Shown here: positions 10,922-38,901 of the stretch, piece by piece
Layout: every line of letters starts with the position of its first letter
Numbering within the stretch: the stretch's first letter is position 1
Source of the DNA: a virus
Lineage: Duplodnaviria > Caudoviricetes
Reading direction: 5' to 3' (one strand)
Length of the DNA: 56,120 nt
Virus record (IMG/VR): IMGVR_UViG_3300046331_000690
Coordinates: 1-56,120 of that record
The notes under the pieces: generated by a model
What the model was told of the DNA's origin: nothing
The model's database searches: none
The model's input: only the letters and a program-made list of their open reading frames with translations
Program-made: the position numbers and the translations under genes

Positions 10922-11557
10922 ATGAGCTGCGAAAATGGATGTTATGAAGCTGTTATTTCCGGTTGTAATGACATTGTAATTCGTGCCGGCTTTACTCCCA
11001 ACTATCCTATGTATTGGATAGTAAAAAAATCCAACAGCAATAATATTTACCAGAAATTAACCCAAACAACTGTTGATGGAGATTTAATCATTAACATGGA
11101 TGATTTGCCACTTGGGTATTTAACTGCCAATAGCTTTTTAAACATTCAGGTAAGAAATGGGAATAATTATCTGCAGCCTGTTTTGTTTCAGTTTGGTATT
11201 GATACTTACCAATGTGTTGTAGCTAAGTTAATAAATGTGATTAGTCCTAATGACAATAGCAGCTTTAATATAATTCAATATTCAAATTCTATGGCAATAA
11301 ATGAAAGTCTTTTCTTTTCAGTAAATGCAGATTTTACCATTGATTTAAAAGCCGGCGAAACACTGGAGTATATTTCTCTTAATAATAGTAGCACAATGAA
11401 TATTGTTGTTAGTACTACTCCAGACGGTAATGAATTGGCAGAGCAGGAAGTATTAAACCTTCAGCCGCTAGTATTGATGCATGTTGCTGCTTCTGATGAA
11501 ACAATATATGTAAAAGGCATATTGCCAAATACACTTGTAAAATTTAAAAAATCGTAA
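10922..11557 (+). CDS. Hypothetical virion-associated protein
   Basis: 211-aa ORF at the head of a late operon. Confidence 0.6.
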   Translation: MSCENGCYEAVISGCNDIVIRAGFTPNYPMYWIVKKSNSNNIYQKLTQTTVDGDLIINMDDLPLGYLTANSFLNIQVRNGNNYLQPVLFQFGIDTYQCVVAKLINVISPNDNSSFNIIQYSNSMAINESLFFSVNADFTIDLKAGETLEYISLNNSSTMNIVVSTTPDGNELAEQEVLNLQPLVLMHVAASDETIYVKGILPNTLVKFKKS

Positions 11558-13545
11558 TGAAAAAGATATTGCCAATCATAGTTTTTTTAATTACCAATCA
11601 ATGTTTTGGACAAGCTTATGTTGCAAATGCATACGAGGCTAAGAGCTACTTTAAATTGAACGGCTATAAAGTAGTTGGTATAAGTAATGACAGTCTCGAA
11701 GCAAACAAACGTTTTAACTACCTATGGACAGAATCAGCCGGTAAAAAGTTTGTAATTAGCTATGTGGCAACCCATGGTGGCAGCGGTGGCGGTCCGGCAT
11801 TTGATAGTACTTATGTTTATGCAGCAATACTGAATTGCTTAAAATACAGCGATACTTCTACCATGCTGGGAGTATACAGAACAGCCTTGAACGGAAAGCT
11901 TTCAATTGCTGCAGCAGCTGCAACGTATCAGCCTATTGGGAGCTATTTAACAGGCTCGGCGCTTACTCCATACTTGACTACAGCAATTGCAGCCAGTACT
12001 TATCAACCCATTGGTTCATATCTCACCAGCATCAACAGTAGCCAGGTTATAACGGCTCTGGGCTATACTCCTTATGATGCAAGCAATCCTACAGGTTATC
12101 TCACAACTTCCTCGATTTCTGGTAAACTAAACATATCCGACACAGCCGCAATGCTAAACTTGTACAAAACAGTCTTGGCAACTAATACGGCTAATATTGT
12201 ATTGAAGGCAAACACAAACAACCCTTCCTTCACAGGCTTAGTTAGCGCAGGCGGAGCAACAGCAGACAGCGCAATTACTACTACATCTTTGCACGTTACA
12301 ACCAATATGAGAGTAGATGGAAACGTAGGAGTTGGGCCAGTAGGCGCTTATCCATTGTCTGTAGTGGGTACAGGTGCAACATCAATACTTGGCTATTTTG
12401 AGCAACCGGGTTCTTTGGTTCCAACCTTGCAAACCTATATGAAAAATACAAGCAGCAATGTATCTACTAATGCAGTTGTAGGTGCTTTGGGCTTTGGTAA
12501 TTACTTCAATAGTTCTTATTCTCCAACTACACAAAATATTGCAGATATACAAGGGGTATATTTGGGTAGCGGCACTACACAAAGAGGTGGTATTAATTTG
12601 CGTACTCACAACGGTACAACACTTGCCACCCGATTAAATATTAATGATACAGGTATTGTAAAAATACCTTACTACGGTGCAGGAACAACTCTTGCTACGC
12701 CTGCTTATGGATTGGGTGTAAGAGCAGACGGAACGATTATAGAAATAGCAACAGGCGGTGGTAGTAGTGATAGTTCTACATTTTCAACCAATTTTAGAAG
12801 GGATAGTTTAGCAATAAATTTAAGGGCTGAAATTGCAGCAATTGCAGGGGGTGGCACAGGATGGGGTAAAATAGGAAATACCGTTACAGCAGGCTCACAA
12901 TTTTTAGGAAGCACCAATAATGTTTCTTTAAGAATTAGAGCCAATAACACTGAAAGATTGGTTATTGATAGCGTTGGTACTTCAACATTTACAGGCCCAT
13001 CTTTAACGGGTAGTGCTGCACAAGCAGCGGTAGTTATAAATCAAACATGGAATACATCTGCTAGCGTTTCGGCATTTATTGTAAATGCTACTAATACAGC
13101 CAGCGGAGGTTCGGCGTCTGTAGCAGATTTTAGGATTGGCGGTAATTCGGTGGCTATTATTAATAAAGTTGGTGCTGTTTATTTAGCACAGGCAAATGGA
13201 GCATCATTCGGTTGGAGTGGCCGCAGTCGTATTTGGTGCAATGCAGATGGTATTATTAACCTTTCAAATAACGCACAGGATAATATTACAAGGGTTAATT
13301 GGGGTAGCACCACATCAGCTTACCCTTCTATTGCACGTAATGCTGCAACACTTGAATTTAAGTTAGCAGATAACAGTGCATTTGCAGGTACACAATCTTT
13401 GTATGATAGGTTTGGAGCAGGTTCACCCGAAGGCGGGGTTACTGCACCAGTTGGGGCAGTTTATCACAGGACAGACGGTGGAGCAGGTACATCATTTTAT
13501 GTTAAAGAATCAGGCACAGGAAACACAGGCTGGATAGCAAAATAA
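11557..13545 (+). CDS. Tail-fibre-like protein with a Sec signal peptide
   Basis: MKKILPIIVFLITNQCFG|Q. Gly/Thr-rich, with AAxTYQPIGSYLT repeats and a C-terminal GSPEG.VTAPVG..Y...GNTGW fibre-type motif. Confidence 0.65.
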   Translation: MKKILPIIVFLITNQCFGQAYVANAYEAKSYFKLNGYKVVGISNDSLEANKRFNYLWTESAGKKFVISYVATHGGSGGGPAFDSTYVYAAILNCLKYSDTSTMLGVYRTALNGKLSIAAAAATYQPIGSYLTGSALTPYLTTAIAASTYQPIGSYLTSINSSQVITALGYTPYDASNPTGYLTTSSISGKLNISDTAAMLNLYKTVLATNTANIVLKANTNNPSFTGLVSAGGATADSAITTTSLHVTTNMRVDGNVGVGPVGAYPLSVVGTGATSILGYFEQPGSLVPTLQTYMKNTSSNVSTNAVVGALGFGNYFNSSYSPTTQNIADIQGVYLGSGTTQRGGINLRTHNGTTLATRLNINDTGIVKIPYYGAGTTLATPAYGLGVRADGTIIEIATGGGSSDSSTFSTNFRRDSLAINLRAEIAAIAGGGTGWGKIGNTVTAGSQFLGSTNNVSLRIRANNTERLVIDSVGTSTFTGPSLTGSAAQAAVVINQTWNTSASVSAFIVNATNTASGGSASVADFRIGGNSVAIINKVGAVYLAQANGASFGWSGRSRIWCNADGIINLSNNAQDNITRVNWGSTTSAYPSIARNAATLEFKLADNSAFAGTQSLYDRFGAGSPEGGVTAPVGAVYHRTDGGAGTSFYVKESGTGNTGWIAK

Positions 13546-13550: not shown

Positions 13551-14393
13551 ATGAAGCAAATAATAACTATACTCATTCTATTTAACACTTGTTTTGCGCA
13601 GGTTACATTCAACTATCAAAAACCTGATACAACAAATGTTGTTGATTTTTTTGTGATAGCCGGACAAAGCAATACTGGCAGACCGCTATCAACTTATATG
13701 ACTGCACCAGAAGCTGCTTTATACGCAGGTGCAAGAAGTAAGACTTTTATATTTAATCCGTGGGTAAATACCGATACATTTCAAATTATGAATGTCGGTA
13801 CAAATTGCTATACAGAAAATGCTAATGTGTTACAATACGGCCCTGAAGCAAGTTTGTTCAAGTTGCTAGAGCAGCAAGGAAACAAAGAAAGATATGTTGT
13901 AAAAATGGGTATTGGCGGCACAAGTATGGAAGGTGTTTGGAGACCAGGCAGATTAACATTTACCAACCTTATGAAGTATACCGATACGGCGATAAGTAGG
14001 ATTGTTGCTAAAGGTAAAACACCTCGTTTTGTAGCCTTCATATTTCAGCAGGGCGAAGCAGATGCAACCTCATTAACCAATAGCGGTTTGTATTATGCCA
14101 ATATGGTAAGGTTTTGGAATAGTGCAGATAGCGCCATCAATATAATGTACAGGCGAAGGGGATTAGTAATGCTTACACCTTACAAAAAAATCATTGGCAG
14201 GATAAAGCCCAATCCACAGGTTTCATACACTTACGCATCTGTTGTAAGAGAAGCGCAAGAAAGATACTGTAAAAATTTTAATGCTGTTTTAAATGATTGT
14301 GACAGTTATCCAATGTTGGACGATGAACATTTTTCTGCAAAAGGGCAAATAACTTTTGGTACTGATATTTATAATATGATAAAAAACTATTGA
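13551..14393 (+). CDS. SGNH/SASA-type carbohydrate O-acetylesterase with a signal peptide
   Basis: AGQSN, QGEAD and DDEH motifs; signal peptide ending CFA|Q. Confidence 0.85.
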   Translation: MKQIITILILFNTCFAQVTFNYQKPDTTNVVDFFVIAGQSNTGRPLSTYMTAPEAALYAGARSKTFIFNPWVNTDTFQIMNVGTNCYTENANVLQYGPEASLFKLLEQQGNKERYVVKMGIGGTSMEGVWRPGRLTFTNLMKYTDTAISRIVAKGKTPRFVAFIFQQGEADATSLTNSGLYYANMVRFWNSADSAINIMYRRRGLVMLTPYKKIIGRIKPNPQVSYTYASVVREAQERYCKNFNAVLNDCDSYPMLDDEHFSAKGQITFGTDIYNMIKNY

Positions 14394-14708: not shown

Positions 14709-14916
14709 GCTATTGGTTGCAAAAGGTTGGGTAAATTATTATAGTTGTAAAACATGTGGAGATAGAAAGTTTTATAATCATCTGGATAAGCCGGGTTATG
14801 AAATAAGGGTAAAACAAAAGAATCAAACGTTCAGTATTTTATTAAACAATATGATGGTATCCGGTCCGCATTGGGGATATCAGTTAGAAGAAAAACTTTT
14901 ATTAAATGGAATTTAA
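14701..14916 (+). CDS. Hypothetical protein
   Basis: ORF overlapping both neighbours in an operon-like way; CxxC. Confidence 0.55.
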   Translation: MNELLVAKGWVNYYSCKTCGDRKFYNHLDKPGYEIRVKQKNQTFSILLNNMMVSGPHWGYQLEEKLLLNGI

Positions 14917-15520
14917 GCTGGAAATAATAACAGGGATAAATCCTAAGCAATTCTTCCCGGATGCAAAGTATATCATTACTTATGCATTCACTATTGGTGA
15001 CAGGCATTATTTCCGCTATGATGATCCATTGAATACACCTTATGACAGGGCTTTGAAGTGCCTTGTTTATTACAAAGAGCTGGACATGAATTGCGATAGG
15101 GATTTCTTAAAAGCACATACGGCAGCTTTTGACAAAGTGCTTTCTGGAAGTAAGCTAACTATTAATGATCTGGTGACCTTAAAGCAAATGAATGAACAAT
15201 TAAAACAAAGGCTGGAACTACCTAAAGAGCCAGATTTAATGTATAAACTGGCCGCTATTGTTTTCTTTGATCAGCATGAGAACCCAATGACGTATGAATT
15301 TAAATATGGGGAGAATAAAATTCGCTTTTGGAAGAAAAATTTAAGCCTCAACGCTTTTTTTTTGCGGAAGCCATTGGTGGAATTGATACCATATTTGAGA
15401 TATGCAGGAGAAAATTTAGAACAGTTTTCAGAAATGACAGGAAAGGCAACACAAGCACATTTGGACAAACTATTGCCGCTACTATCGGCAGAACAGAAGA
15501 CGACATTATTGGGCAAATAA
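14906..15520 (+). CDS. Putative tail assembly chaperone
   Basis: Lies just before the tape measure gene and is followed by an open -1 frame to 15639. Confidence 0.5.
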   Translation: MEFKLEIITGINPKQFFPDAKYIITYAFTIGDRHYFRYDDPLNTPYDRALKCLVYYKELDMNCDRDFLKAHTAAFDKVLSGSKLTINDLVTLKQMNEQLKQRLELPKEPDLMYKLAAIVFFDQHENPMTYEFKYGENKIRFWKKNLSLNAFFLRKPLVELIPYLRYAGENLEQFSEMTGKATQAHLDKLLPLLSAEQKTTLLGK

Positions 15521-15639
15521 AAATAGTAACCGGCAGTTTAAACGCTGCAATACTTCCTCACTTAACAATCTATGAGTTTTACCAGGAGCTTGAATTTATT
15601 ATGAAGGCTGCTATAAAACAAAAGGCTAATAGAAAATAG

Positions 15640-18600
15640 ATGTCTGCAGAGAATGTTGTTATAAATTTTGTGGGAGATACCTCAGCATTACAGCCGGTAG
15701 AAAATGCGCTGGATGGAATCATTGCACAATCTGGTGAAGTTGGTACCGCCTGGACCAAAGCTTCTGCTGCAATGACAAACCAGACCAAGGAATCTGTTAC
15801 CTCTACCAATAAGCTTTCTAAAAGTATTGAGCAAATGATTGTGGCTACCAAAAGTATGGATAAGGTGGCAATAGGCGGAGCTTATAAAGAAACATTAAAA
15901 GAAATAAAAAATGAATTAGGGTTGACTAATAAAGAAATTGTAAAATTTTTAAATGATGCAAAGAAGCTGGTAGAAATTCAAGTAGGTGACCCTAATACAT
16001 TAGAAGATATCGATCAGATGAAATTAGGTATTGAGGTTATTAATCAACAGCTTTTGGAATTAGGTAATTTTGAAGGAGGTACACTTTTAGAATTTATTAA
16101 ATCGCTTAAAAATCAATTGCTTGGCTTAAAAGCTGCTGGTAAAGAAAATACTTCTGAATTTACTAATCTTAGAGAAGAGATAGTAAGATTACAAAATGAA
16201 TATAATAACACTAATAAGGAACTAAAGAACCTTGGAAGTGATACAAAAGGAATTGATGGTGTTATTTCTCTTGCTGGTGGAGTTGCTAGTGGCTTTGCAG
16301 TAGCACAGGGAGCAGCTGCTTTGTTTGGTGATGAAAATGAGGAAGTACAAAAGGCATTGCTAAAAGTAAATGCTGCCATGAGTTTTTTACAGGGTTTACA
16401 AGGAATTCAAAATGTATTGCAAAAAGAAAGTGCAGCTTCGCTATTATTTGCATCAGGCGCACGTACCACACAAACAGCGGCAGTAGTAGCAGAGACAGTA
16501 GCAGAAGGTGCTAATGTAGTAGCTACAGAAGCTGCTACGGTTGCTCAGGTAGAATTAAATACAGCCATGTCTCTTAATCCGGTTGGTTTACTGATAGTTG
16601 GAATATTGGCTGCTGTAGCTGCTTTTTCTGCTTTTGGAGATGAAGTAGAAAGTAGTGTTGACAGAATAGAACGTTTACAGAAAAAAGCAGAGGATGTATA
16701 TACCGCTTTACAAAATTTAAGTAAGGTAAACCAGTTTGCAGTTGACAGAGAGGTAGAAATTACTAAGAATAAAGAATTGGTAAATGTATTGGAAGCCCAA
16801 AATACATCCATTCAAAATATCAATCAACAAAAGAAGATTGGTATTGGTTTAGAAAATGACAAGCTTAAAGATGAGTTAAGCAATATTGAATCGGTAAAGG
16901 ATATATCAGAAGATAAAAATCAATTTGTAGAAAGGGAATTGGCTATAAAATCACAGATATACTCCAATGATCAGGCTCAACTTGTATTAGATATTGAAAC
17001 CAATAAGGTATTAGCTGAGAGAGCGCTTAAATCCAATTCGGCAAATGCAGATGCAGAAGTTGCTAAGAGGAAATTAGCAATTATTCAAAATCAGATAGAT
17101 AGTATTGCCTCCATAAAAGCAATCAGTGATGCTGAAATTGAAGCAATTAAAAGAAAAAAACAAGAGGATCTTAATCCAGCCAATCAACTGACTGCAGGTG
17201 AAATAGCCAAAGTAAATGCAGATGCTAATTTAGCTATAGCCGAAAATAGAAAAGCTCTTTCTCAAAAACTATTAGAAATTGATACTGCCGGTATAGAAGC
17301 CAAAGTATTGCTTGCAAAAAAGGGTAGTGAGGATGAATACCAGGCAAGGCTTCTGTTTTTGCAAAATGAGCAACAAACTTTATTAGCTGCTACTAAGGTT
17401 ACAAAAAATGACAAGCTAAAAATAGAAGCTGATTTTTATGTAAAAAAGAAAGCGCTGGATCAGGAATTTGCAGTTAAAAAACTAGAGAATGAGATCAGTT
17501 ATTTTGATGCAAATATTGCTGAGTTTGGATTGTCTGAAAATAGAAAATTGGAGCTTACAATTAGAAGGCTTGATAAACAGCGTGATCTTGAAATATTGCA
17601 AGCAGAAGATAATGCTGCTAAAATAGCGGAGATTAATGCTAAGTATGATTTACAAAATATCGAAGCAAATAAAGCTTCTATTGCAAATGTATTGGCTGAT
17701 AATTTAAAAACTGTTGATGCATTTAGCGGAATCTCCAATGCTGCCAATGAGAAAATATTAACTCAGGATAAATCAACATTTGACCAACGAGTGGCTGCAA
17801 GTAAACAGTTATTATCCAATAAATTACTTAGTCTTGATTTAGAAGCATCTGCCGAAAAGAAAAAACTTGCTGTTGGATTAGAAGCTGCTGGAGATGATAT
17901 TAATAAGCGATTGTTTGCACAACATGAGTATGATGTTGCTGTTCAGTTAATCAATAATCAACGTTCAGCTGCTGCCATCAAAAGTGAGGAAGAAACTACT
18001 GCTGCAACATTGAAGGAAATTGAAAAGAGAACCGTCAGTCTTCAAAATGTTTTTTCTATCGTTCAAAAAGGTTTGCAGGCTACATTGGGAAATTCTCCAT
18101 TAACTACAGCTTTAACTGATTTGCAAAACTTTGGTGTACAGGCACAAGATGTATTTGCAAAAATAAAAGCAGGTACCATTACTTCTGCTGAAGGATTTAA
18201 ACAACTGGCCGGATCTGCCATTGCTTCTATGCAAGAAATTACCAATCAGCTTTTTGCAGATAACAGTGCCCAAAGAGCAGCTACATTACAGGATACTCTT
18301 TCGATATTGGATGAGCAGAAAAATAAAGAGCTTAGTAATAAGAATTTGACAGAGCAACAAAAGGCTGAGATAGATAAAAAGTATAAAGACAAGGAACGGC
18401 AGGAGAAAATAAAAGCATTTGAGGCAGAGAAAGGAGCTAAAAAAGAACAGGCAATAATAAATGGATTATTGGCTGTTACCAATGTATGGGCACAAAATGC
18501 AGGTAACCCAATTTTAGCAGCTATCCTTACTGCTTTGACTGTAACTACTACTGCTATTCAGGTTGCTAAAATTTCAGCAGCTAAAACTCCTAAATTCTTT

Positions 18601-18981
18601 AAAGGAAAGGTAGGTATTGAAGGACCTGGCACAACAACCAGCGATAGCATACCGGCTATGATCAGCCGGGGAGAAAGCGTTATTAATGCCAAGGCAACCA
18701 ACAAATGGAAACAAGCGCTGGAGGCAATCAATAATAATCAATTTGAAAGTTATCTGGCCAGTCATTTTACAAAGCTTGCTATGCCTCAAATACCTGAAGG
18801 TTTGATTGCTGGGCAAAATGGATTACAGATTGATTATGAAAAATTGGCTTTGGCCATTGCCGGTAAAATACCTGAGCCTACATACATTCAGAACAATATA
18901 GATGAAAGTGGATTTCAAAGATTAGTAATAAAAAATGGCAATAAAACTGAGTATAAAAATCAACGCTATTCAATGACATGA
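15640..18981 (+). CDS. Tail tape measure protein
   Basis: 1113 aa, Ala-rich and helical; C-terminal GPGTTTSDSIPAMISRGESVINA motif. Confidence 0.88.
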   Translation: MSAENVVINFVGDTSALQPVENALDGIIAQSGEVGTAWTKASAAMTNQTKESVTSTNKLSKSIEQMIVATKSMDKVAIGGAYKETLKEIKNELGLTNKEIVKFLNDAKKLVEIQVGDPNTLEDIDQMKLGIEVINQQLLELGNFEGGTLLEFIKSLKNQLLGLKAAGKENTSEFTNLREEIVRLQNEYNNTNKELKNLGSDTKGIDGVISLAGGVASGFAVAQGAAALFGDENEEVQKALLKVNAAMSFLQGLQGIQNVLQKESAASLLFASGARTTQTAAVVAETVAEGANVVATEAATVAQVELNTAMSLNPVGLLIVGILAAVAAFSAFGDEVESSVDRIERLQKKAEDVYTALQNLSKVNQFAVDREVEITKNKELVNVLEAQNTSIQNINQQKKIGIGLENDKLKDELSNIESVKDISEDKNQFVERELAIKSQIYSNDQAQLVLDIETNKVLAERALKSNSANADAEVAKRKLAIIQNQIDSIASIKAISDAEIEAIKRKKQEDLNPANQLTAGEIAKVNADANLAIAENRKALSQKLLEIDTAGIEAKVLLAKKGSEDEYQARLLFLQNEQQTLLAATKVTKNDKLKIEADFYVKKKALDQEFAVKKLENEISYFDANIAEFGLSENRKLELTIRRLDKQRDLEILQAEDNAAKIAEINAKYDLQNIEANKASIANVLADNLKTVDAFSGISNAANEKILTQDKSTFDQRVAASKQLLSNKLLSLDLEASAEKKKLAVGLEAAGDDINKRLFAQHEYDVAVQLINNQRSAAAIKSEEETTAATLKEIEKRTVSLQNVFSIVQKGLQATLGNSPLTTALTDLQNFGVQAQDVFAKIKAGTITSAEGFKQLAGSAIASMQEITNQLFADNSAQRAATLQDTLSILDEQKNKELSNKNLTEQQKAEIDKKYKDKERQEKIKAFEAEKGAKKEQAIINGLLAVTNVWAQNAGNPILAAILTALTVTTTAIQVAKISAAKTPKFFKGKVGIEGPGTTTSDSIPAMISRGESVINAKATNKWKQALEAINNNQFESYLASHFTKLAMPQIPEGLIAGQNGLQIDYEKLALAIAGKIPEPTYIQNNIDESGFQRLVIKNGNKTEYKNQRYSMT

Positions 18982-23552: not shown

Positions 23553-24392
23553 ATGAAAAAAGGAATATTATTAATGGCTTTGGGTAATGAGAATTATTAC
23601 CGTATGGCGGTTGTGTTAGCAGCTTCTATAAAAGTTAATGATCCTGATTTGCCCATTTGTTTAATTACCGGAAATAAGGTGCAGGAAGAGCATAAGCTGT
23701 TATTTGATATTATCAATCCTCCGATTGAAAAAAGTATTACGGTTAAAGGCGCCATACAATTTATAAAGGCTAAGACCTACATGTATGAGTATAGCCCTTT
23801 TGATGAAACTATATTTTTAGATGTGGATCAGGTAATGATAATGGGGAGGAAATTAAGTTCATTATTTGATGAGCTTGCCGGTATTGATTTGGCTATCAGT
23901 AATACCGGTATTGCAAAGGAGAGTATATGGGCAAGTATTAAAGAAGTGAAAAGCTTGTATGGTAATAATCCATTCTGGAATTATCACAGTGAGTTTATTT
24001 ACTTTAAAAAGTGTGCTGCTGTAAAAAGTTTCTTTAAGGCCGCAATAAAAATTTATGATGATAATAAAATAACTACTGCAAATAAGTTTGCCAATGCAAA
24101 TATGGCTGATGAACTGGCATTTCAGGCAGCATCAATAAAAACGGGTATTTACCCTCATAAAGAAAATTGGCTTCCAAATTTTTGGTTTGACCGGGATATT
24201 AAAAATAGCAGGAAGTATCCATTTGAATTGACAGAATATATTACTTACAGCATTGGCGGTAATAAAATTCCCAATAATGTAAAAGACAATTACAATATTT
24301 TGGCGAAAGCATACTTCGCAAAACTTGGTTTATTAAATCCCTATCAGGTGGTTGATAAACGTACTTTTTTACCTGAAAGAAAATTAATTTAA
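23553..24392 (+). CDS. Putative GT-A glycosyltransferase
   Basis: LAASIK..P.LPICLIT, K...YEYSPFDETIFLDVD (DxD), and DELAF. Confidence 0.7.
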   Translation: MKKGILLMALGNENYYRMAVVLAASIKVNDPDLPICLITGNKVQEEHKLLFDIINPPIEKSITVKGAIQFIKAKTYMYEYSPFDETIFLDVDQVMIMGRKLSSLFDELAGIDLAISNTGIAKESIWASIKEVKSLYGNNPFWNYHSEFIYFKKCAAVKSFFKAAIKIYDDNKITTANKFANANMADELAFQAASIKTGIYPHKENWLPNFWFDRDIKNSRKYPFELTEYITYSIGGNKIPNNVKDNYNILAKAYFAKLGLLNPYQVVDKRTFLPERKLI

Positions 24393-24393: not shown

Positions 24394-26190
24394 ATGCCAA
24401 AGATTAGTAATGAGAAATTGCAAATGTATTTTACCAGCAGTGGTAATTATTACCCTTTGTATGTTGATTCTGTAAAATTGTACAATGATTTAAAGGTGCA
24501 TGCGGACGGTTCATTTCCAGGTCATTTGATAGAAAAGCAACGTCCATCAGAGAGCGAAGAGATTCTTGTTTATAGAAAAGACATTTACGAAGCAGTAACA
24601 AAGCTTCCTCTTAGCAAGGTAATAAATTGCTACAGCAAAATCAGAAGATCACCAGACTGGATGATAAAATTCCCTACCGATAAGGTTTCTGCTAAAATTG
24701 CGGAAGATGAAACGCTGGAGGAATATTGCAGTGAACAATTACCAGGCTTTACAAGCATTACTAATTGGGCTTTTGATATTTTGCTTCCTCAAAATTTAAT
24801 TGATGCCAATGCAGTGATAGCAGTAATACCAATAAAGGAAATTACTGCAACTGAATACGCTATGCCAACGCCTATATTATTCAACAGTGATCAGGTAATG
24901 TTTTATAGCGAAAAGGATAAATATTGCATTCTTGAAAGCAAAATAATAGTCAACTACCAGGATGCAAATAATCATTTTCAAAGTGGTAAAAGATTTTATT
25001 ACATAGATGATAATGAAATTGCTATTTATGAGCAATCAAAGGATGGTTACGTGCCTGTATTTTTTCAGGTAAATACAATCAAGCAATTTCCTGTCTTTAA
25101 AGTAAAATCAGAAAGCTACCGGCAGTATGAGAATATGAACTTAAACAGAAGCCGGCTACATGCCATGGTGCCGTTTTTGAATAAAGCTGCAACTGGGGAT
25201 AGTGATTTAGATGGCAGTAAGATTCAGCATTTGTATCCGCTGTTTTGGTACTATCAAAATAAAAGCTGTAATAGTTGTAATGGTATAGGCAAGGTTGCTA
25301 CTGAAAATGGACATACAGATTGTAAAAGTTGTGCAGGTAGCGGAAAAGTAAAATTTTCTCCCTTTGCACATATTCAAGTTGATCCTGCCACACTAGGCAC
25401 ACAGGCCAATCCAATACCACCGGCTGGTTATATACAACGTGATATTGCCATTTTAGAATTACAGGAAAAATGTGTTGAAAAGAATAATTATAAGGCGCTC
25501 TCTGCAATGAATATGCAGTTTCTTGATCAGACACCACTTTCAATATCTGGCGATGCAAAGCAGGTTGACAGGGAGGAGCTAAACAACACCGTTTATAATA
25601 CTGCAGAAGATTTGGTATATACAGTTGAGAAGGTTATTTATTTTATCAATGAGTGGCGGTATATATACATTGTTGCTGATAAGAATAAAAGAGAGGAAAT
25701 GTTGCCAGAGATACCAGTTCCACAAAATTTTGATTTGTTGCCAGAAGATTATTTGATGAAGGAAGTAACCGATGCAAGAACTGCCAAGGTAAATCCATTA
25801 TTAATTGCTACTCTGGAACAGCAGCTTGCCGCCAAGAAGTTTTACAACCAGCCTGATCTTGCTTGTAACATTAAGCTATATTTTGACCTTGATCCATTGC
25901 CTGGTTTATCTGTGGATGAAAAAATGAGCCTGATCAGTAATCAGGCCATTACTAAAGAAGATTTTGTAATCAGCAGCTATATGGCCAGCTTTATAAAAAG
26001 AGCATTGAGGGAAAATGCAGACTTTGATAAAATGGATTATCAACCACAGATGGATGTGCTTATAAAATACGCTCAGGAAAAAATTAAGGCAAATGATGCT
26101 GCCAGCCAAATGATTGATGCTCAAAAGCAGGCTGTATTGGCTGAAATGAAACAGGCTAACCCCGGACAGCAAGCATCAGGAGGCCAATAA
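24394..26190 (+). CDS. Portal protein with a DnaJ-type zinc-finger insertion
   Basis: Size and position, SGDAKQVD motif, CNSCNG.G and CKSCAG.G. Confidence 0.7.
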   Translation: MPKISNEKLQMYFTSSGNYYPLYVDSVKLYNDLKVHADGSFPGHLIEKQRPSESEEILVYRKDIYEAVTKLPLSKVINCYSKIRRSPDWMIKFPTDKVSAKIAEDETLEEYCSEQLPGFTSITNWAFDILLPQNLIDANAVIAVIPIKEITATEYAMPTPILFNSDQVMFYSEKDKYCILESKIIVNYQDANNHFQSGKRFYYIDDNEIAIYEQSKDGYVPVFFQVNTIKQFPVFKVKSESYRQYENMNLNRSRLHAMVPFLNKAATGDSDLDGSKIQHLYPLFWYYQNKSCNSCNGIGKVATENGHTDCKSCAGSGKVKFSPFAHIQVDPATLGTQANPIPPAGYIQRDIAILELQEKCVEKNNYKALSAMNMQFLDQTPLSISGDAKQVDREELNNTVYNTAEDLVYTVEKVIYFINEWRYIYIVADKNKREEMLPEIPVPQNFDLLPEDYLMKEVTDARTAKVNPLLIATLEQQLAAKKFYNQPDLACNIKLYFDLDPLPGLSVDEKMSLISNQAITKEDFVISSYMASFIKRALRENADFDKMDYQPQMDVLIKYAQEKIKANDAASQMIDAQKQAVLAEMKQANPGQQASGGQ

Positions 26191-28880: not shown

Positions 28881-28895
28881 CAAAAAATTTAAACT

Positions 28896-31329: not shown

Positions 31330-31337
31330 TAAAATAA

Positions 31338-32515: not shown

Positions 32516-33112
32516 ATGCCTTTTATTAATCAGATAGTAACCTACATCAATGATTCTTTAAAGGCAGGTTCTTTGAATAAATCAGCATTGCAACCGGCAG
32601 TATATCATGAGCTCAGTACAGTAGTAGTACGCAAAAATGCTACACAAAAAGAGCCTGAATATTTACCGGCCATTATTTCACCAGAAGGCAAAGCCATGGT
32701 GATAACGCCTGATAGTAAATTGGCCATACAAATTTATCATAAGCAGCTTACCAATGTGTACAGCTATGAGAAAAAAAGCTATGGCAATAATTATGATGTA
32801 AAAAGCAGTACAGAGCTGGCCATGATTGTTATTACCAACAGTAAATTAATTGGTAGTAATAAAGATGCAGTAGAGCCACTCTTTGTTTTTGGAATACCAC
32901 AGGTACCAACACAAAGCTTTTTACAGCAATTAAATATCATCAATTGCTCTATTACTCCTTTGGGATCTAATATGAATCATGTAGAAGTATTTAGACAGGA
33001 ATACCCAAAGAGTGACTATTTTTTAAATGAGCAAATGAGTATGTTTTTAATCCGATACAGAATTGAAATGAAGTTTAACCAGGCATGTGTAGATCAATGC
33101 CTTTGTCAATAA
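32516..33112 (+). CDS. Tail terminator-like protein
   Basis: Position only. Confidence 0.4.
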   Translation: MPFINQIVTYINDSLKAGSLNKSALQPAVYHELSTVVVRKNATQKEPEYLPAIISPEGKAMVITPDSKLAIQIYHKQLTNVYSYEKKSYGNNYDVKSSTELAMIVITNSKLIGSNKDAVEPLFVFGIPQVPTQSFLQQLNIINCSITPLGSNMNHVEVFRQEYPKSDYFLNEQMSMFLIRYRIEMKFNQACVDQCLCQ

Positions 33113-33141
33113 AATTTATTCAACTTAAAAATTCATCAAAA

Positions 33142-33597
33142 ATGAAAAGTTTAAAATTTCTTATCTGCTCCATGTTAGTATTGGCTTGCAGCTTATCGTT
33201 ATCTGCTCAAATCCAGTATCAAAAAACAATATCCGGTAAACTAGTACCAGTTGGTAAAATTGCAACATATACCACAGCCAATGCAACACCTGTAGTAATT
33301 GATACACTTGCCATTGCAGACAATAGTGCCGGTATAATGGAAATTGTTGCTGTAGGTTCCACAACAGCAGGTGACGGTGTAACTGGCAAATTATATTACC
33401 GGTATAAAAAAGTTGCCGGCACATTAACGGTAGCAACTGCAGAGGTAGCATCAGCCATTGTAGCAGATACCAATGTTAGTGGTGCCACATTCGCTTTTGC
33501 AGCCACATCATACGGTAATGGAAAGTTAACGATAACCGGAAAGGCTGCTTTAAGTATCAAGTGGCGAACCTTAATAAAGCCTTACTATAATTTTTAA
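33142..33597 (+). CDS. Beta-rich late protein with a Sec signal peptide
   Basis: MKSLKFLICSMLVLACSLSLSA|Q. Confidence 0.65.
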   Translation: MKSLKFLICSMLVLACSLSLSAQIQYQKTISGKLVPVGKIATYTTANATPVVIDTLAIADNSAGIMEIVAVGSTTAGDGVTGKLYYRYKKVAGTLTVATAEVASAIVADTNVSGATFAFAATSYGNGKLTITGKAALSIKWRTLIKPYYNF

Positions 33598-33656
33598 GTA
33601 AGGCATGACCGGTTAGCCGGTAAAACATCAATTTTTCAATTTTTCAATTTTATATT

Positions 33657-34223
33657 ATGGGTTCCTATTCATCATTATATGGTTGCGGCGGTAGCGAAGC
33701 TCTGCACGTATGCCACGATTGCCCGGGTTCTTTTGAAAGAGAATTTGCCCGGGTTCGCCTTTCTGGTTTTGTGAAAAAAAATTATTACGCTACCCTTAAA
33801 GCTAGTCCACTTGATCTTGCAGTTTGGCAAGCTGGTGTTGATGCTGGAAATATTATCATATTGCCTGAAACATCCGGTAATTATGATCCGGGAGAGCCAA
33901 AAGAGTTGAAGGGCTTTGGTAGCCGCCGGGTTACTTATGGTCCACGCAACATGAAGTTGTTGATTAATGATCCTGTGTATTATGAGAATTATCATTTCTA
34001 TAATGAGATCATTGACAGGACAGATTTAATTCCATTTTTTGGTACCAGCAGCTTGCTTCATTTATTTGATGAAACTGCTTCTATCAAAGCAAAGGATCCT
34101 GTAGCTGATGATCTGGAAGAAGAAGTAATCTGGAATGTAGAATGTGAGGTAATTAGCAAAAATATTCCTGCTAAATATCCACTGGCTACCATTGAATCGC
34201 TCTTTGTTTGTGGGGATTTTTAG
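33657..34223 (+). CDS. Major tail tube protein (a -1 frameshift form would extend to 34294)
   Basis: Size, position, and the G.YD.GEP....GFG pattern; slippery end. Confidence 0.6.
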   Translation: MGSYSSLYGCGGSEALHVCHDCPGSFEREFARVRLSGFVKKNYYATLKASPLDLAVWQAGVDAGNIIILPETSGNYDPGEPKELKGFGSRRVTYGPRNMKLLINDPVYYENYHFYNEIIDRTDLIPFFGTSSLLHLFDETASIKAKDPVADDLEEEVIWNVECEVISKNIPAKYPLATIESLFVCGDF

Positions 34224-34296
34224 GTGGGGGGTCCGGTATCCCTTACACCGGAGAATTCAATGAAGATTTCAACGATGATTTTTTAAACGGATAGGG

Positions 34297-34326
34297 GAAG
34301 GGGTAAATTATTTTACCCCTTCTTTT
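34297..34326 (+). terminator. Intrinsic terminator
   Basis: GAAGGGGTAAA-ttat-TTTACCCCTTC followed by TTTT. Confidence 0.75.
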
Positions 34327-34340
34327 AAAACATACTTACA

Positions 34341-35156
34341 ATGAAAATTCTTTTTTTATTCCTTTCATTTTCTATCTGCCTTTTATCTTTTGGGCAAGAC
34401 CCAACGGCTAAAATTGCAACAGCAAGAGCATACAATAGTGCCAATATTGTTACCAATAATGTGAAGGCTATAACAGCTACTAAAGTAAATACAGCCAATA
34501 CAAAAATATTAGACGCTATAGCTGCATTGAGGGATAGTGCAACGGGTTCTACTGGTTGGGGATTAACTGGCAATACAGGAACTAGCTCTATAACTAAATA
34601 TATCGGTACAAACGATACAGCAAGTTTTATAATTAGAACGAATAGCGTTCCGGCAATTACAGTTACACAGGATGGCAATACTGGTATAGGCACCACTACT
34701 CCCAATAGTAAATTAGATGTAAATGGTGACGTAAATGTTACTGGATCAGTAGCTGCATATTTTTATTATGGCAATGGATCAAATCTTACTAGCCTGCCAG
34801 ATTCAAGGCCGTATAAAAGTTATGTTGCAAGAATTTATCAGGTATCAACTTTTGCTCCTGCAGTAGCTCATTATTTTCCAGACACTGGGTTGCCGGGAAT
34901 TGCCGTAAGTTATGGAAGAACAGGGGTAGGAGTTTACACAATTACATTAACCTGGGATAATACAATTACTACTGCCACTGAAGATAATTTTACAATTAAC
35001 CTAACTGGCTTACTAAAATATAATTACAATTTAGTTTCTCAATCAGCATCTGGCAGTACAACAACATTAGTATATACCATAAATAACTACGATCATGCTG
35101 GTGGTTTAGTTGATGGTATATACAGAGGCTATTTAGAAATAAGATATTACCCATAA
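34341..35156 (+). CDS. Fibre-like protein with a signal peptide
   Basis: LSFG|Q, N-terminal ARAYN..NIVTN..KAITATKVNTA domain, and GNTGIGTTTP..KLDVNG. Confidence 0.65.
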   Translation: MKILFLFLSFSICLLSFGQDPTAKIATARAYNSANIVTNNVKAITATKVNTANTKILDAIAALRDSATGSTGWGLTGNTGTSSITKYIGTNDTASFIIRTNSVPAITVTQDGNTGIGTTTPNSKLDVNGDVNVTGSVAAYFYYGNGSNLTSLPDSRPYKSYVARIYQVSTFAPAVAHYFPDTGLPGIAVSYGRTGVGVYTITLTWDNTITTATEDNFTINLTGLLKYNYNLVSQSASGSTTTLVYTINNYDHAGGLVDGIYRGYLEIRYYP

Positions 35157-35166
35157 AATATTACCA

Positions 35167-36621
35167 ATGAAAAAATTACTTTTTATACTTCCATTACTTT
35201 TTTTTGGAGTTGCATTTGCACAAACACCTGCCGCACTTGTAGATAGTGCCAGGGCATACAACAATACCAATATTGTAACGAATGCATCTAAGGCAATTAC
35301 TGCCACTAAGGTAAATACAGCTATCAATAAAACTCTAGATGCAGTTAATGGAGTGAGGCAATTTGCTGAGCATCAGATAAAACATGTATTGGTAGATACT
35401 GGCTTGGTAGCGAATGTTATTAATGATAGTACAGTTCTGATAAAGATTGACAGTACTGTTGTAACTTTTGGAGATACAGCAGAATTTGGAGGAACCATTG
35501 CAACTAGGGCAAATATTTTTGCTTTTAAAGATTGGGATATGGATTATGATCTTGATAACATTTACAACAAAAATACAGGTAATGTAGGCATTGGCACCAG
35601 TACACCTACAGCAAAACTGCATATTGCCGGCAATGTAAAAATAGTAGATGGAACTCAGGGGGCAGGTAAGGTACTTACAAGTGATGCAGATGGTAATTCA
35701 GCATGGGCGGTTCAATCATCTCCAGTTATTTATAATCAGATAATAGGTGAAGAAAAAATTAGCGATGGTAACAATATATTAGAATTTGATAGTGCTTATT
35801 TAAAAAAGACTATTGCCATTTATAGGAATGGGTTAAGGCTAAGAAATACTGATTTCAATCCTGTTTATACAAAAGCTGTATCACTTAATTTTACCCCTAC
35901 TATTGGTGATATTTTTATTAAAGATTATAAAAATATACCAGATACTGCTGCTGTTTTAATCTCCTTTAATATTGACAATAACTCTACAAGCTTTGATATA
36001 GAAGGTAGCGACTTTTTTACAGCAAGAGTAGATTGGGGTGATGGTGTTATAAATAATTACGCTGGATATACTATAACTGTATCTCATACATATACCACAA
36101 ATGGGATACATAATGCATCCTTTAAATTTAACAGCTTTTCAACGGTTACTGCTTTACTCTTAAATAATCAAAAAGTAGTTTATATTGATAATCTCGATTT
36201 ATTAACTCAATTATATTCATTAGGTTTAAGCTATAATCAGCTTACTCATTTTAATCCAAGAAAGCCTTTAAGCGGTTCGTTGACGTATCTAAGTTTAGAT
36301 CACAATAACATATCCAATTTTAACTTGTCATTACCCAGTATAAATGCTTTACAAATAATAAACGTTGGGTATAATGATTTAGTAAAATTCCATATAAATG
36401 GACCAACTCCAAGAAACACGTATGTAGTAGACTTGAGCAATAATCAATTGCCTGTTACAGAAATTAATAGTATATTAACTTATTTCGATTCTGGTACATT
36501 ACTTAATACTAATGCTGCATTTACTTTAGATCAGCAAACACCATCAGCTTCACCAACTGGAGCTGGTATAACTTCAAAGAATAACCTTATAACTTATGGT
36601 TGTACAGTAATAACAGATTAA
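35167..36621 (+). CDS. Fibre-like protein with a signal peptide, a PKD-like domain and leucine-rich repeats
   Basis: AFA|Q, the same N-terminal domain, VDWGDG..SHTY, and LxLxxNxL repeats. Confidence 0.7.
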   Translation: MKKLLFILPLLFFGVAFAQTPAALVDSARAYNNTNIVTNASKAITATKVNTAINKTLDAVNGVRQFAEHQIKHVLVDTGLVANVINDSTVLIKIDSTVVTFGDTAEFGGTIATRANIFAFKDWDMDYDLDNIYNKNTGNVGIGTSTPTAKLHIAGNVKIVDGTQGAGKVLTSDADGNSAWAVQSSPVIYNQIIGEEKISDGNNILEFDSAYLKKTIAIYRNGLRLRNTDFNPVYTKAVSLNFTPTIGDIFIKDYKNIPDTAAVLISFNIDNNSTSFDIEGSDFFTARVDWGDGVINNYAGYTITVSHTYTTNGIHNASFKFNSFSTVTALLLNNQKVVYIDNLDLLTQLYSLGLSYNQLTHFNPRKPLSGSLTYLSLDHNNISNFNLSLPSINALQIINVGYNDLVKFHINGPTPRNTYVVDLSNNQLPVTEINSILTYFDSGTLLNTNAAFTLDQQTPSASPTGAGITSKNNLITYGCTVITD

Positions 36622-36637
36622 AAAAGCTATCATAATC

Positions 36638-37036
36638 ATGAAAAAACTATTATCGATTATTTTATTACTGATTTCCATTGGGGTAAATGCTCAAATTAAG
36701 AGTAATACAGATTCTATTTTAAATGTTTTCAATTCAAGGATTTTAAACATTGAGAATATAAAGCCCTTTAAGCTTGGCACCGGCTTTACCAGCAAAAATG
36801 ATTTTGTAAATGTAAATTTTGATAGTGCTAATTTGAAATTATTGAATAGGATTATTACATTGGAGGCGGCTAGCACAAACCTTAATAATACAGTGATTTC
36901 ACAGGGTTCATTGATAACAGCACTGGCAAATAGAATTGCTATTTTAGAGGCTGATAAAATAGCAAAAGATTCAAAACAAATCATGAATGATTCAAGATTT
37001 ACATTAATTGAATCCTGGATTAAAAAACCTTTGTAA
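36638..37036 (+). CDS. Coiled-coil protein with a signal peptide
   Basis: VNA|Q and RIxxLE heptads. Confidence 0.65.
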   Translation: MKKLLSIILLLISIGVNAQIKSNTDSILNVFNSRILNIENIKPFKLGTGFTSKNDFVNVNFDSANLKLLNRIITLEAASTNLNNTVISQGSLITALANRIAILEADKIAKDSKQIMNDSRFTLIESWIKKPL

Positions 37037-38901
37037 TGAAAAAAAGTACAACAATATTTTTAATAATGCTTTGCTGCAATTGCTTTGCTGCCAATCATTA
37101 TTTTTCTTCTACTGGTAGCGATGCAAATAATGGCTTAAGTTCTTTATTACCACAGCTTAGTATTTCTAAATTAAATACTGATATGGCCACTTATGCAAAT
37201 GGTGATTCAGTTTTGTTTAAGTGTGGAGATACTTTTTATGGAGCTATTACAGGATTTAAGACAGGTTTAAAATTTGGCAGTTACGGCACAGGTGCAAAGC
37301 CTATAATTTCGGGATTTACAAATGTAACAAGCTGGACAAATCTGGGTAGTAATATTTGGGAGAGTGTAGCAATTACCGGAACTAATAAGCCCAACATGGT
37401 AACTATTGGCGGCGTGGCAAAAGCAATGGGCAGATACCCAAATGCAGGGTACAATTTCTACACTTCATTTACCACAGGTTACATTAAAGATGCAGCCCTA
37501 ACAGGTAGGAACTTTACAGGCGGCAGGTTGTGTGTAAGGAAATTGCACGACATAATAAGTAACGATTCTATTACAGCACATAGCATTGATACCCTTTATG
37601 CAAATAGTATATCAGGCTACAATACATTGACCGGTTACGGCTATTTTGTAGAAAACCACCCCAATACATTGGATACAGAGGGTGAATGGTATTTTAATCC
37701 AATAACAAAAAAGTTACGAATTTACAGCACATCCAACCCAACGAGTGTAAAAATATCAACCATTGACACATTATGCTATCTATCTGCTTTTGATAATATT
37801 GCCATCAGTGGTATTGAGTTTCAAGGAGCAAATATTGCTGCTGTAGCGTTTGGTGGTCCTACAGTTGGTCAGGCGGTAAACGATACCATCAGAGGTTGCT
37901 CATTTACTTATAGTGGCAGGAACGCTATTTATTGTACATTCAACCGTTACTGCTCAATTGAGGGTAATTCAATTTACTACAGCCTGAATAATGGTATTTA
38001 TTGTGAAAACGAGGGTGGCAGAAGTTTGAATATTAATATCTCAAATAACACGATTAAACACACTGGTACATTGCCAGGCATGGGATTTATACAGGCAAGT
38101 ACAAGTAGCAATATCAGCTACAATGGCATTACCGTATTGGGAGATTCGGCAGTAATTACAGGTAACATAATTGATACGGTTGGGCATGTTGGCATTGCAG
38201 CTTACTACTCTAATACTAAAGTTAGAAACAACAATATCAACTACCACAATTACATAACAGACGATGGTGGTGGTATAAACTTTTTTGATGTAACATTTGG
38301 TGCAACAACCGAAACCGGGATTGATATAGTAGGCAATACAGTTACTAGGGGAATTGGTGCAGGCGTTGGAACTCCCGATGGCGGCAATGTGGCAAATGGT
38401 ATCTATCTTGATGATAAGATTAATGGTGTACGAATTGACAGCAATATAGTAACAACAGCCGCTAATCATGGTATCTACTACCATAATATAACCAACGTAA
38501 CAGCAAGTAGAAATAATGTAAGTAATTGTGGGGTGTCAGGCTTTGCGATAGCCCATGATGACCACGCTTATGGTATTCCTATCAGTAATTTAATTTTTAC
38601 AAATAACATAATTACACAGCCTACAGGATGGACTTTGTACTTCTATAATTTCATTGATGGCGGTAATTTGGATAGCATGTTTACAAGGCTTGACAGCAAC
38701 ACTTACTATCGTTCATCCTTGACAGATACTGCTTTTAGGACTATCAGGTTTAATGGTACAAGTTATTTCAACCAGCATCTGAATTTTGGAGGGTGGAGGG
38801 CTGGTTATCCTTTGTGGGATGTCAATAGCACGTTAACCATTCCGGCTGATAGAGTTGTGATTAAAAACTTTAAAGGGTATATGATTTTTAGAAAAAATTA
38901 A
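37036..38901 (+). CDS. Right-handed beta-helix protein (tailspike/depolymerase-like) with a signal peptide
   Basis: YFSSTGSDANNG, LFKCGDTFYG, YGTGAKPIISG, repeated I.GN.I, and GIYLDD. Confidence 0.8.
   Translation: MKKSTTIFLIMLCCNCFAANHYFSSTGSDANNGLSSLLPQLSISKLNTDMATYANGDSVLFKCGDTFYGAITGFKTGLKFGSYGTGAKPIISGFTNVTSWTNLGSNIWESVAITGTNKPNMVTIGGVAKAMGRYPNAGYNFYTSFTTGYIKDAALTGRNFTGGRLCVRKLHDIISNDSITAHSIDTLYANSISGYNTLTGYGYFVENHPNTLDTEGEWYFNPITKKLRIYSTSNPTSVKISTIDTLCYLSAFDNIAISGIEFQGANIAAVAFGGPTVGQAVNDTIRGCSFTYSGRNAIYCTFNRYCSIEGNSIYYSLNNGIYCENEGGRSLNINISNNTIKHTGTLPGMGFIQASTSSNISYNGITVLGDSAVITGNIIDTVGHVGIAAYYSNTKVRNNNINYHNYITDDGGGINFFDVTFGATTETGIDIVGNTVTRGIGAGVGTPDGGNVANGIYLDDKINGVRIDSNIVTTAANHGIYYHNITNVTASRNNVSNCGVSGFAIAHDDHAYGIPISNLIFTNNIITQPTGWTLYFYNFIDGGNLDSMFTRLDSNTYYRSSLTDTAFRTIRFNGTSYFNQHLNFGGWRAGYPLWDVNSTLTIPADRVVIKNFKGYMIFRKN

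Follow-up and report, generated by a model that had tools for sequence, protein, structure and literature searches.

Predicted secretion leaders and an excess of O-glycosylation motifs in seven fibre-like, enzyme-like and small late proteins of a temperate Bacteroidota phage

Tail fibres of tailed phages are, by the textbook, built in the cytoplasm. Why, then, should late genes of a tailed phage begin with signals for secretion? The locus that raises this question lies in the IMG/VR virus record IMGVR_UViG_3300046331_000690, which we analysed whole (the window, 56,120 bases; completeness 100% according to CheckV). Seven late open reading frames (ORFs) between 11557 and 38901 encode fibre-like, enzyme-like and small proteins that start with Sec-type leader peptides and together hold an excess of the O-glycosylation motif of Bacteroidota. 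This combination of leaders and motif excess is confirmed not to be a product of chance. Because the seven late proteins bear both a secretion signal and an excess of a sugar-attachment motif, we conclude that host-recognition gear of this phage probably matures outside the cytoplasm. We favour the reading that export is followed by attachment of at least the fibres to the virion, a proposition that we regard as evenly poised.

Leaders were called with a heuristic that looks for a hydrophobic core, a positive n-region without an acidic residue, and small residues at -3 and -1. It was positive for 9 of the 58 ORFs in the window, namely the seven listed here, a lipoprotein (39411-39998) and an ORF on the - strand (42882-43499). 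We name ORFs by their first position; arrows mark the predicted cut, motif counts refer to D-(S/T)-(A/I/L/V/M/T), lengths are in amino acids (aa), and slots A to C are variable positions described below.

11557..13545, + strand: fibre-type leader protein, 662 aa, CFG↓Q, 6 motifs, slot A
13551..14393, + strand: leader protein, predicted SASA/SGNH carbohydrate acetylesterase, 280 aa, CFA↓Q, 3 motifs, slot A
33142..33597, + strand: small beta-rich leader protein, 151 aa, LSA↓Q, 1 motif, slot B
34341..35156, + strand: short leader fibre, 271 aa, SFG↓Q, 2 motifs, slot C
35167..36621, + strand: fibre-type leader protein with leucine-rich-repeat (LRR) C terminus, 484 aa, AFA↓Q, 6 motifs, slot C
36638..37036, + strand: small helical leader protein, 132 aa, VNA↓Q, 2 motifs, slot C
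37036..38901, + strand: leader right-handed beta-helix protein, glycoside-hydrolase-like, 621 aa, CFA↓A, 9 motifs, slot C

On inspection of the sequence itself, each leader has an n-region with one or two Lys, a hydrophobic core of 10-15 residues and a small-x-small site, and the Sec/signal-peptidase-I-type architecture is thus present in 7 of 7 by the heuristic and by eye. The first-pass annotation of this sequence had assigned signal peptides to these seven ORFs and Gln at +1 to six of them, and both assignments hold, with Ala at +1 in 37036. Gln at +1 (the Q-rule) is described as specific to signal peptidase I substrates in Bacteroidetes (Bochtler et al. 2018, PMC5837995), and a PF05096 glutaminyl cyclase is encoded in all three metagenome-assembled genomes (MAGs) that hold relatives of the phage.

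The leaders are also conserved in homologues. In IMG/VR, where 17 loci were found, the ten that were opened (two being the same ORF) all have a leader on the matched ORF, nearly always with Gln at +1, as do all 11 retrieved homologues of the beta-helix protein 37036 as regards the leader itself. The list for 11557 is mixed, with leaders in 17 of 69 homologues (18 of 70 proteins with the query counted). None of the core virion genes has a leader in any of five phages, these being the window's phage and the four related phage contigs with which we compared it (G001:C377, G002:C40, G002:C115 and G003:C31/L028). Export had been proposed earlier from the leaders, and their conservation, adherence to the Q-rule and the cyclase genes all strengthen that proposal. 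Departure of the seven products from the cytoplasm through the host Sec pathway is well supported by these predictions; from the leaders we infer both a non-cytoplasmic location and cleavage at the predicted sites.

The second half of the observation concerns glycosylation. According to a review (PMC12871550), D-(S/T)-(A/I/L/V/M/T) is the motif of a general O-glycosylation system that is widespread in the phylum Bacteroidota and acts on non-cytoplasmic proteins; the same source reports that occupancy of such sites in exported Bacteroidota proteins is nearly complete, that sites introduced by engineering are also used, and that glycosylation works across species. The seven proteins contain 29 motifs in 2601 aa (6, 3, 1, 2, 6, 2 and 9 in the order listed). 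Shuffling residues within each protein gave a mean of 9.3 (standard deviation 2.9) and reached 29 in none of 3000 shuffles, an excess of 3.1-fold. The remaining 51 proteins (13,997 aa) hold 29 motifs where 32.0 are expected, and the tape-measure-like protein of 1113 aa holds 4. The estimates made by eye in the first-pass annotation (about 29 in about 2600 aa, 9 in the beta-helix protein, about 4 in the tape measure) were therefore exact, and the enrichment they implied stands up statistically. Taken singly, 11557, 13551, 35167 and 37036 have an excess at p<0.05; the three smallest proteins (33142, 34341 and 36638) fall short of that threshold.

The excess is specific to the exact motif. Seven control motifs tried in the same proteins were all at expectation, including versions in which the first residue was replaced by N (23 observed, 18.9 expected), E (2, 3.4) or G (21, 20.1), a reversed and a permuted version (6 observed and 9.3 expected in each case), and D-S/T followed by a non-hydrophobic residue (16, 12.5).

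It might be asked whether wrong start codons, chance hydrophobic N termini and a chance cluster of tripeptides could between them have produced this picture. The start of 33142 is an internal ATG within an ORF opening at 33085, and the leaders were called by a heuristic. Against this, only 9 of the 58 ORFs were flagged and seven of those fall in three slots, homologues on independent contigs begin in the same way, and no shuffle attained the motif count. We thus consider such an artefact very improbable indeed.

Homologues provide a natural comparison. Leader-bearing homologues of 11557 (n=17) hold 112 motifs against 54.7 expected (2.05-fold), whereas those without a leader (n=52) hold 124 against 163.5 (0.76-fold). 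On the related phage contigs, leader ORFs, a class that includes a few false positives, hold 41 motifs against 17.9 expected, and other ORFs 74 against 68.9. Given the motif-specific excess and the published rules, host glycosylation of many of the 29 sites is plausible. As the review reports near-full occupancy, most sites would be expected to carry glycan if the proteins are exported in a host running the system.

What the exported proteins might do is suggested first by where their genes lie. Comparison with the four relatives shows that the seven leader genes occupy three variable slots, an arrangement new here, within a conserved core. Core genes kept at 36-75% identity are the tape measure, the 869- and 492-aa proteins, 23553, the portal, the head genes, 32516 and 33657. 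The slots, and the features that border them, are as follows.

Slot A, between 10922 and 14409: in the window, leader fibre and leader esterase; in G001, two leaderless proteins; in L028, nothing
Slot B, between 32516 and 33657: in the window, 33142; in G003 (G003:C31), a 44% identical leader-bearing homologue in the same place; in the other three relatives, nothing
Slot C, between 33657 and the lysis genes: in the window, four leader genes; in G001, two leader proteins (SASA, DUF4838); in G003, three (one fibre-like, two with PKD domains); in G002:C115, two leader proteins (one fibre-like, one GDSL esterase); in G002:C40, three leaderless proteins
10922..11557, + strand: conserved leaderless late gene, left border of slot A, 53% identical in G001 and 28% in L028
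14409..14708, + strand: conserved small membrane protein, right border of slot A, 48% identical in L028 and 61% in G001
32516..33112, + strand: conserved leaderless structural gene, left border of slot B, 51-56% identical in G001, G002:C40 and G002:C115
33657..34223, + strand: conserved leaderless structural gene, border of slots B and C, 62-67% identical in the four covering relatives
34292..34327, + strand: strong hairpin with a 16-pair stem, within the 117-nt gap ahead of the four leader genes of slot C

Slot C follows the last conserved structural gene and precedes the lysis genes, and in the four relatives it contains unrelated fibre or enzyme genes, those of G002:C40 being leaderless fibres. 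The leader genes are integrated into the late operons: the stop of the 10922..11557 gene overlaps the start of 11557, gaps within the leader gene clusters are -1 to 16 nt, and the GC content at third codon positions is 0.19-0.32 in leader genes and 0.23-0.39 in neighbours, so that their composition is not deviant. Between 28000 and 45000 the sole strong terminator-like site on the + strand is at 40709-40732, after the endolysin. The hairpin at 34292..34327, which the terminator pattern scan did not call, may be an attenuating terminator.

An N-terminal motif, KIS-Q/E-M ... LP-x-V-x-SG-x-N, opens the first slot-C protein in three relatives (L041:1307-2956, L043:2251-3372 and L042:8314-9789 on the - strand). 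It stands directly behind the predicted cleavage site in G003 and G002:C115, and behind 'MATV' in the leaderless protein of G002:C40; the match is short, with BLASTP E values of 2e-4 and 2e-5. This motif is a candidate virion-docking part whose export status has been switched. As relatives hold leader-bearing and leaderless versions of one N-terminal motif, a leader may act as a switch between cytoplasmic and periplasmic routes.

Three of the seven, 11557, 34341 and 35167, are classed by their sequence matches as fibre-type proteins with links to real tail fibres. Residues 1-240 of 11557, leader included, match leader-bearing proteins of 669-1979 aa on IMG/VR phage contigs. In eight mapped IMG/VR loci, three of them near-identical, the leader giant ORF sits at the fibre position, after tail or baseplate genes and before lysis genes, and carries 5-22 motifs against 2.7-8.0 expected. 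At the other end, residues 612-662 have matches in 238 cultured-phage records, in some of which they are 60-79% identical to segments of proteins named tail fibre, tail spike, tail or virion structural proteins; fibres or tailspikes sharing this end motif of about 50 residues come from phages of Klebsiella, Acinetobacter, Vibrio, Pseudomonas and Ralstonia. The protein is not present at slot A of G001 or G003/L028. An AlphaFold2 model of 11557 from a 25-row alignment was unusable (pLDDT 43.4, pTM 0.27), and searches of PDB sequences with 23553, 11557 and 37036 gave no usable match.

The short fibre 34341 shares its tip with a known phage protein: residues 101-271 are 34% identical (E 1e-14) to the C terminus of Harreka1_13 of Olleya phage Harreka_1, reaching the very last residue. 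Harreka1_13 is a leaderless protein of 670 aa whose gene is the final large one in the stretch from the tape measure to the lysis genes, whereas the N terminus of 34341 consists of a leader and a short module. That module, about 50 residues right behind the leader, is common to 34341 and 35167 (E 3e-16), after which the two sequences diverge; it was found in no other protein or locus compared here and is a candidate docking part. The repeat of 34341 and 35167 is very common in Bacteroidota 'tail fiber domain' proteins (hundreds for the 35167 motif), and 35167 also has a weak LRR_8 match and matches an LRR protein of Flavobacterium phage MaF61. One repeat unit of 34341 is present in 15,356 representative clusters, and it swamped a search of 1.84 billion representatives, which returned nothing on the N-module or the tip.

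Two further proteins are enzyme-like. The family of 13551 is confirmed by PF03629 (SASA; E 2.6e-13, 50.6 bits against a cut-off of 24.8, residues 32-273) and by a GQSN catalytic motif at residues 38-41, which identify it as a predicted SASA/SGNH acetylesterase; it also has a weak match to phrog_4201 'tail fiber protein'. Relatives have leader-bearing SASA or GDSL esterases in slot C. The beta-helix protein 37036 (PF13229) has 537 homologues. The more distant of these are encoded on Bacteroidota chromosomes, measure about 1000 aa and in many cases carry the sorting domain PF18962 of the type IX secretion system (T9SS); their alignments to 37036 begin at the leader and cover 90-100% of its length. 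37036 and its close clade (P0002-P0006, 616-689 aa) are without a sorting domain and hold 7-9 motifs against about 2 expected. Its AlphaFold2 model (pLDDT 92.5) is best matched in the PDB by BT_1002 of B. thetaiotaomicron (5MQP; template-modelling (TM) score 0.59-0.61), and phage tailspikes and depolymerases reach only 0.2-0.36. Thus, since its best fold is BT_1002, its kin are cellular and tailspikes score low, we do not file 37036 as a tailspike, an identity that we rejected for want of an N-terminal adaptor and for a fold nearer to glycosidases. A metagenome contig scan with 37036 yielded distant beta-helix loci only, which were left unused.

The labels of fibre, tailspike and esterase given in the first-pass annotation therefore survive in part, with the esterase and three fibre-type proteins standing and the tailspike replaced by a beta-helix protein whose kin are cellular secreted enzymes. 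Likewise, its reading of the proteins as appendages is upheld for 11557, 34341 and 35167 by fibre matches and by the leaderless fibres in a relative's slot, and is weaker for 37036. The two small proteins, 33142 and 36638, have no family match, and the ESM Atlas gave sub-threshold or helical look-alikes only. A small leader protein (124-167 aa) follows the leader giant fibre gene on several unrelated phage contigs (IMG/VR loci L002, L004, L005, L006, L009 and L010), much as 36638 follows 35167; homology of these proteins to 36638 or to each other was undetectable in the five other loci.

These observations suggest the following course of events. The seven ORFs are late genes, and their products would be exported via the host Sec pathway; signal peptidase I would cut the leaders, and in six a host cyclase would turn the +1 Gln into pyroglutamate. 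In the periplasm, the host general O-glycosylation system would then glycosylate many of the 29 D-S/T-X sites. Upon lysis by holin, endolysin and spanin, periplasmic fibres would meet fibreless particles and dock, a step that we infer, and the enzymes would ride on the fibres or act free on host surface polysaccharide. The seven genes would represent an exchangeable host-interaction cassette rather than core virion parts, comprising three fibre-type binding proteins, two sugar-acting enzymes (13551 and 37036) and two small proteins. We can put forward only tentatively the wider proposal that many tailed Bacteroidota phages, this one included, build appendages in a second compartment (Sec, pyroglutamate, host O-glycan) and add them to fibreless particles at lysis.

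The nearest known parallel is Cellulophaga phage phi18:3 (NC_021794, Pachyviridae), in which gp085-087 have leaders with Gln at +1 and lie just before the lysis genes. Their GenBank note calls them structural, 'based on experimental MS/MS proteomics analysis' (MS/MS, tandem mass spectrometry), and they are three of 12 proteins so annotated. The likeness to the window lies in the Sec-type leaders, Gln at +1, a Bacteroidota phage and the pre-lysis position; there is no sequence similarity, the virus family is another one, and the motif is not in excess. In P. gingivalis prophages ('Nixviridae'), Matrishin et al. 2023 (PMC10367356) describe five function-unknown Q-rule leader genes, read as outer-membrane modifiers, and state that these phages use the host general secretion system. 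Those prophages and the window's phage are both temperate Bacteroidota phages encoding Q-rule leaders, but in that account the P. gingivalis genes are without a link to fibres, a fibre slot or the glycosylation motif. Known Bacteroidota substrates of signal peptidase I and O-glycosylation resemble the seven proteins in leader architecture, Gln at +1 and the D-S/T-hydrophobic motif, yet they are cellular, whereas the genes of the window lie in phage structural operons and three are of tail-fibre type. The T9SS type A beta-helix proteins (for example Ilyomonas limi P0043), with which 37036 aligns over 90-100% including the leader, end in the sorting domain that it and its close clade do not have.

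Several observations weigh against the favoured reading, and they bear on two rival explanations. The first set concerns the leaders and the motif. Leader calls come from our heuristic. An excess of the motif in leader-bearing phage proteins is not universal: phi18:3 gp085-087 contain a single motif apiece where about 3 would be expected, in G001 the counts for the two large leader proteins are 3 (2.4 expected) and 4 (2.0 expected), and in leader-bearing members of the 35167 repeat family the motif is depleted (84 against 170 expected). Three of the nine motifs in 37036 recur in 29-37 of 53 distant homologues and may have a structural role; the remaining six are confined to the close clade. 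It could thus be argued that the leaders are not used for full export, acting as uncleaved inner-membrane anchors or being bypassed by late overexpression, and that the motif excess is structural or compositional. This explanation would accommodate the family-wide motifs of the beta-helix, the depletion or lack of excess in other leader-bearing fibre proteins, and the D-S/T dipeptide itself, which at 45 against 21.9 expected occurs at twice expectation; cleavage, moreover, is predicted from sequence. It sits badly with Gln at +1 in six of seven proteins and in homologues, which is sensible only if the leader is cut and the residue is exposed to a periplasmic cyclase, with the canonical small residues at -3 and -1, with motif-poor leaderless homologues (0.76-fold), and with an excess confined to the exact motif and not seen for D-S/T plus a non-hydrophobic residue. 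We consider it improbable.

The second set concerns virion attachment. Each of the seven leader genes is missing from some relative, which would fit morons too; slot A is empty in L028 and slot B in three of four relatives. The two enzymes, 13551 and 37036, are ordinary secreted-enzyme types. In 37036 the helix begins right after the leader, as in cellular homologues, with no N-terminal particle-binding domain, and the protein looks more like a monomeric Bacteroides glycosidase than like trimeric tailspikes. Ahead of the four-gene cluster, the 117-nt gap folds at -37.6 kcal/mol (z -3.06; 0 of 200 shuffles as good). Additionally, the conserved 869-aa and 492-aa tail proteins could alone bind the host, and therefore the leader proteins need not be the sole receptor-binding gear.

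Such points invite the explanation that the seven proteins are exported but never joined to the virion, being free periplasmic, surface or released enzymes or adhesins, or changing the surface of the lysogen. They might strip or mask receptor polysaccharide (receptor destruction, superinfection exclusion, or less progeny loss on debris) or serve moron-type conversion. Slots that vary or are empty among relatives, the ordinary secreted-enzyme character of 37036 and 13551, and the hairpin ahead of the cluster at 34341 are all in keeping with this, as are the P. gingivalis prophage Q-rule genes, read as outer-membrane modifiers in the report cited above (PMC10367356), and the presence of repeat-family relatives of 35167 on chromosomal contigs as long as 4.1 Mb. 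However, the fibre-type members share tips or end motifs with real virion fibres, and the same slot of a relative has leaderless fibres with a shared N-terminal motif. The genes are packed in late operons with no strong + strand terminator before 40709, and none of the seven has a lipobox or a T9SS sorting domain for surface delivery (in searches of Pfam and NCBIfam, 7 of 7 were without a C-terminal PF18962 or type B domain). A separate gene resembling those for outer-membrane proteins lies in the lysogeny module, where a surface protein of the lysogen would be expected, and the leader proteins of phi18:3 are annotated from virion MS/MS. We regard export alone as possible, though we lean against it.

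Moron-type proteins are familiar from other temperate phages. Lom and Bor of lambda, encoded among late or tail genes, bear leaders and are made in the lysogen as outer-membrane proteins or lipoproteins. The Lom/Bor-type candidate of the window is none of the seven leader proteins, but the following gene.

42882..43499, - strand: leader protein resembling outer-membrane proteins, 205 aa, GIS↓Q, beta-rich, terminal Phe, 0 motifs, lysogeny module

Its product has the beta-rich body and final Phe of outer-membrane beta-barrels. The gene sits between the S24 CI-like repressor and a helix-turn-helix gene, and probably encodes an outer-membrane protein for lysogenic conversion or exclusion.

If fibres do mature in the periplasm and dock at lysis, as we favour, a late join would be added to the textbook all-cytoplasmic assembly of tailed phages. 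The virion would bear a host-made glycan coat whose composition is set by the last host, which would explain how Bacteroidota phages could carry host-type glycans, with possible effects on receptor binding, protease resistance and immune recognition of gut Bacteroidota phages. A fibre would change between cytoplasmic and periplasmic routes by gaining or losing a 20-residue leader. Without their leader and a periplasmic, glycosylating host, the products of fibre and depolymerase genes from Bacteroidota phages may fail to fold or function. The Hankyphage paper used absence of a leader to support the phage origin of targets of diversity-generating retroelements (PMC6199706); pipelines that take a leader as evidence against a virion role, in the manner of that argument, would mislabel such proteins. 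The question is directly testable in cultured systems such as phi18:3. Our literature search, mostly outside subscription journals, found no paper on leader-bearing tail fibres of tailed phages or their periplasmic maturation, and the nearest printed observation was the remark on Q-rule leader genes in P. gingivalis prophages. New here are a temperate siphovirus-like lineage for which comparators exist, the cassette of three slots, one of which holds fibres with and fibres without leaders, and the contrast in motif density between homologues with and without a leader.

The phage is temperate, with a tyrosine integrase (40983-42200, - strand) and the S24 CI-like repressor (43501-44253, - strand), and its lineage is siphovirus-like. 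Late genes lie on the + strand in the order large terminase, tape-measure-like gene, 869-aa protein, portal, head genes (which have no family match) and lysis cassette. Those not listed above are as follows.

9440..10792, + strand: large terminase
15640..18981, + strand: tape-measure-like protein with a lytic domain, 1113 aa
+ strand: 869-aa 'virion structural protein' (phrog_15220)
23553..24392, + strand: 279-aa protein just before the portal, 45-80% identity in all five relatives' loci
24394..26190, + strand: portal
39190..39414, + strand: holin-like small protein with two hydrophobic segments in its translation, before the lipoprotein and endolysin
39411..39998, + strand: lipoprotein with lipobox LTS↓C and a C-terminal membrane segment, a unimolecular-spanin-like layout
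39985..40662, + strand: endolysin (phrog_181, E 1.8e-41), end of the late operon

The holin-like ORF overlaps the start of the lipoprotein at 39411, and lipoproteins at the spanin position in relatives are motif-rich (6 against 0.6 and 4 against 0.5 expected). The protein 23553 matches phrog_1903 only and is otherwise without a family or PDB match; it was suspected of being a glycosyltransferase, a candidate dropped as no family or PDB match supports it. A looser second leader heuristic flagged homologues of 23553, which have a hydrophobic N terminus, and we read these flags as false positives.

A search with the portal returned relatives at 58-71% identity on contigs from MAGs labelled Ferruginibacter sp. 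or Bacteroidota. Because portal relatives sit in such MAGs, we take the host, on the basis of MAG binning, to be probably a freshwater member of Chitinophagaceae. Other searches for relatives were empty: megablast with window positions 30000-39200 and tblastn with 13551 found no match among phages, and viral contigs scanned with 35167, 37036 and the capsid-position protein yielded no relatives. Assembly of four DNA sequencing runs over 29000-42500 gave short contigs only, identical to the window, with no cassette variants. PADLOC returned nothing for the seven leader proteins, 39411 or 42882.

The 3' part of a tRNA-Met, from the anticodon loop to the acceptor end, lies at 42299-42350 on the - strand, adjoining the integrase. 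In four freshwater runs depth jumps at 42299 and 42344, and contigs there continue unlike the window. The fragment is probably the core of the phage attachment site (attP), with integration into a host tRNA-Met gene. A tRNA-Met gene is also present at 28808-28881 (+ strand), within the 1-kb gap that precedes the head operon.

A near-identical element, a palindrome around TTGATTAAAAATTTA followed by a TAnnTTTG box, precedes each of the two blocks of late genes, near 10898 and near 28789 (copies at 10870-10905 and 28760-28796), and is a candidate late promoter or operator. No TAnnTTTG box was found just upstream of the leader clusters, and a sigma-70 promoter scan found 54 sites against 67.5 expected from shuffles, the sigma-70 consensus being uninformative for Bacteroidota.

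Two features flank the tape-measure-like gene. Directly upstream, ORFs 14906-15520 and 15328-15639 (+ strand) overlap in different frames; an overlapping-frame pair before the tape measure is at the usual site of the frameshifted tail-assembly chaperone pair. Between the tape-measure-like and 869-aa genes stands an HNH endonuclease gene with an AP2 domain (18978-19457, + strand). G001, G002:C40 and L028 have no HNH gene at this place, the two neighbouring genes adjoining or overlapping directly, and the HNH gene of the window is probably a mobile insertion.

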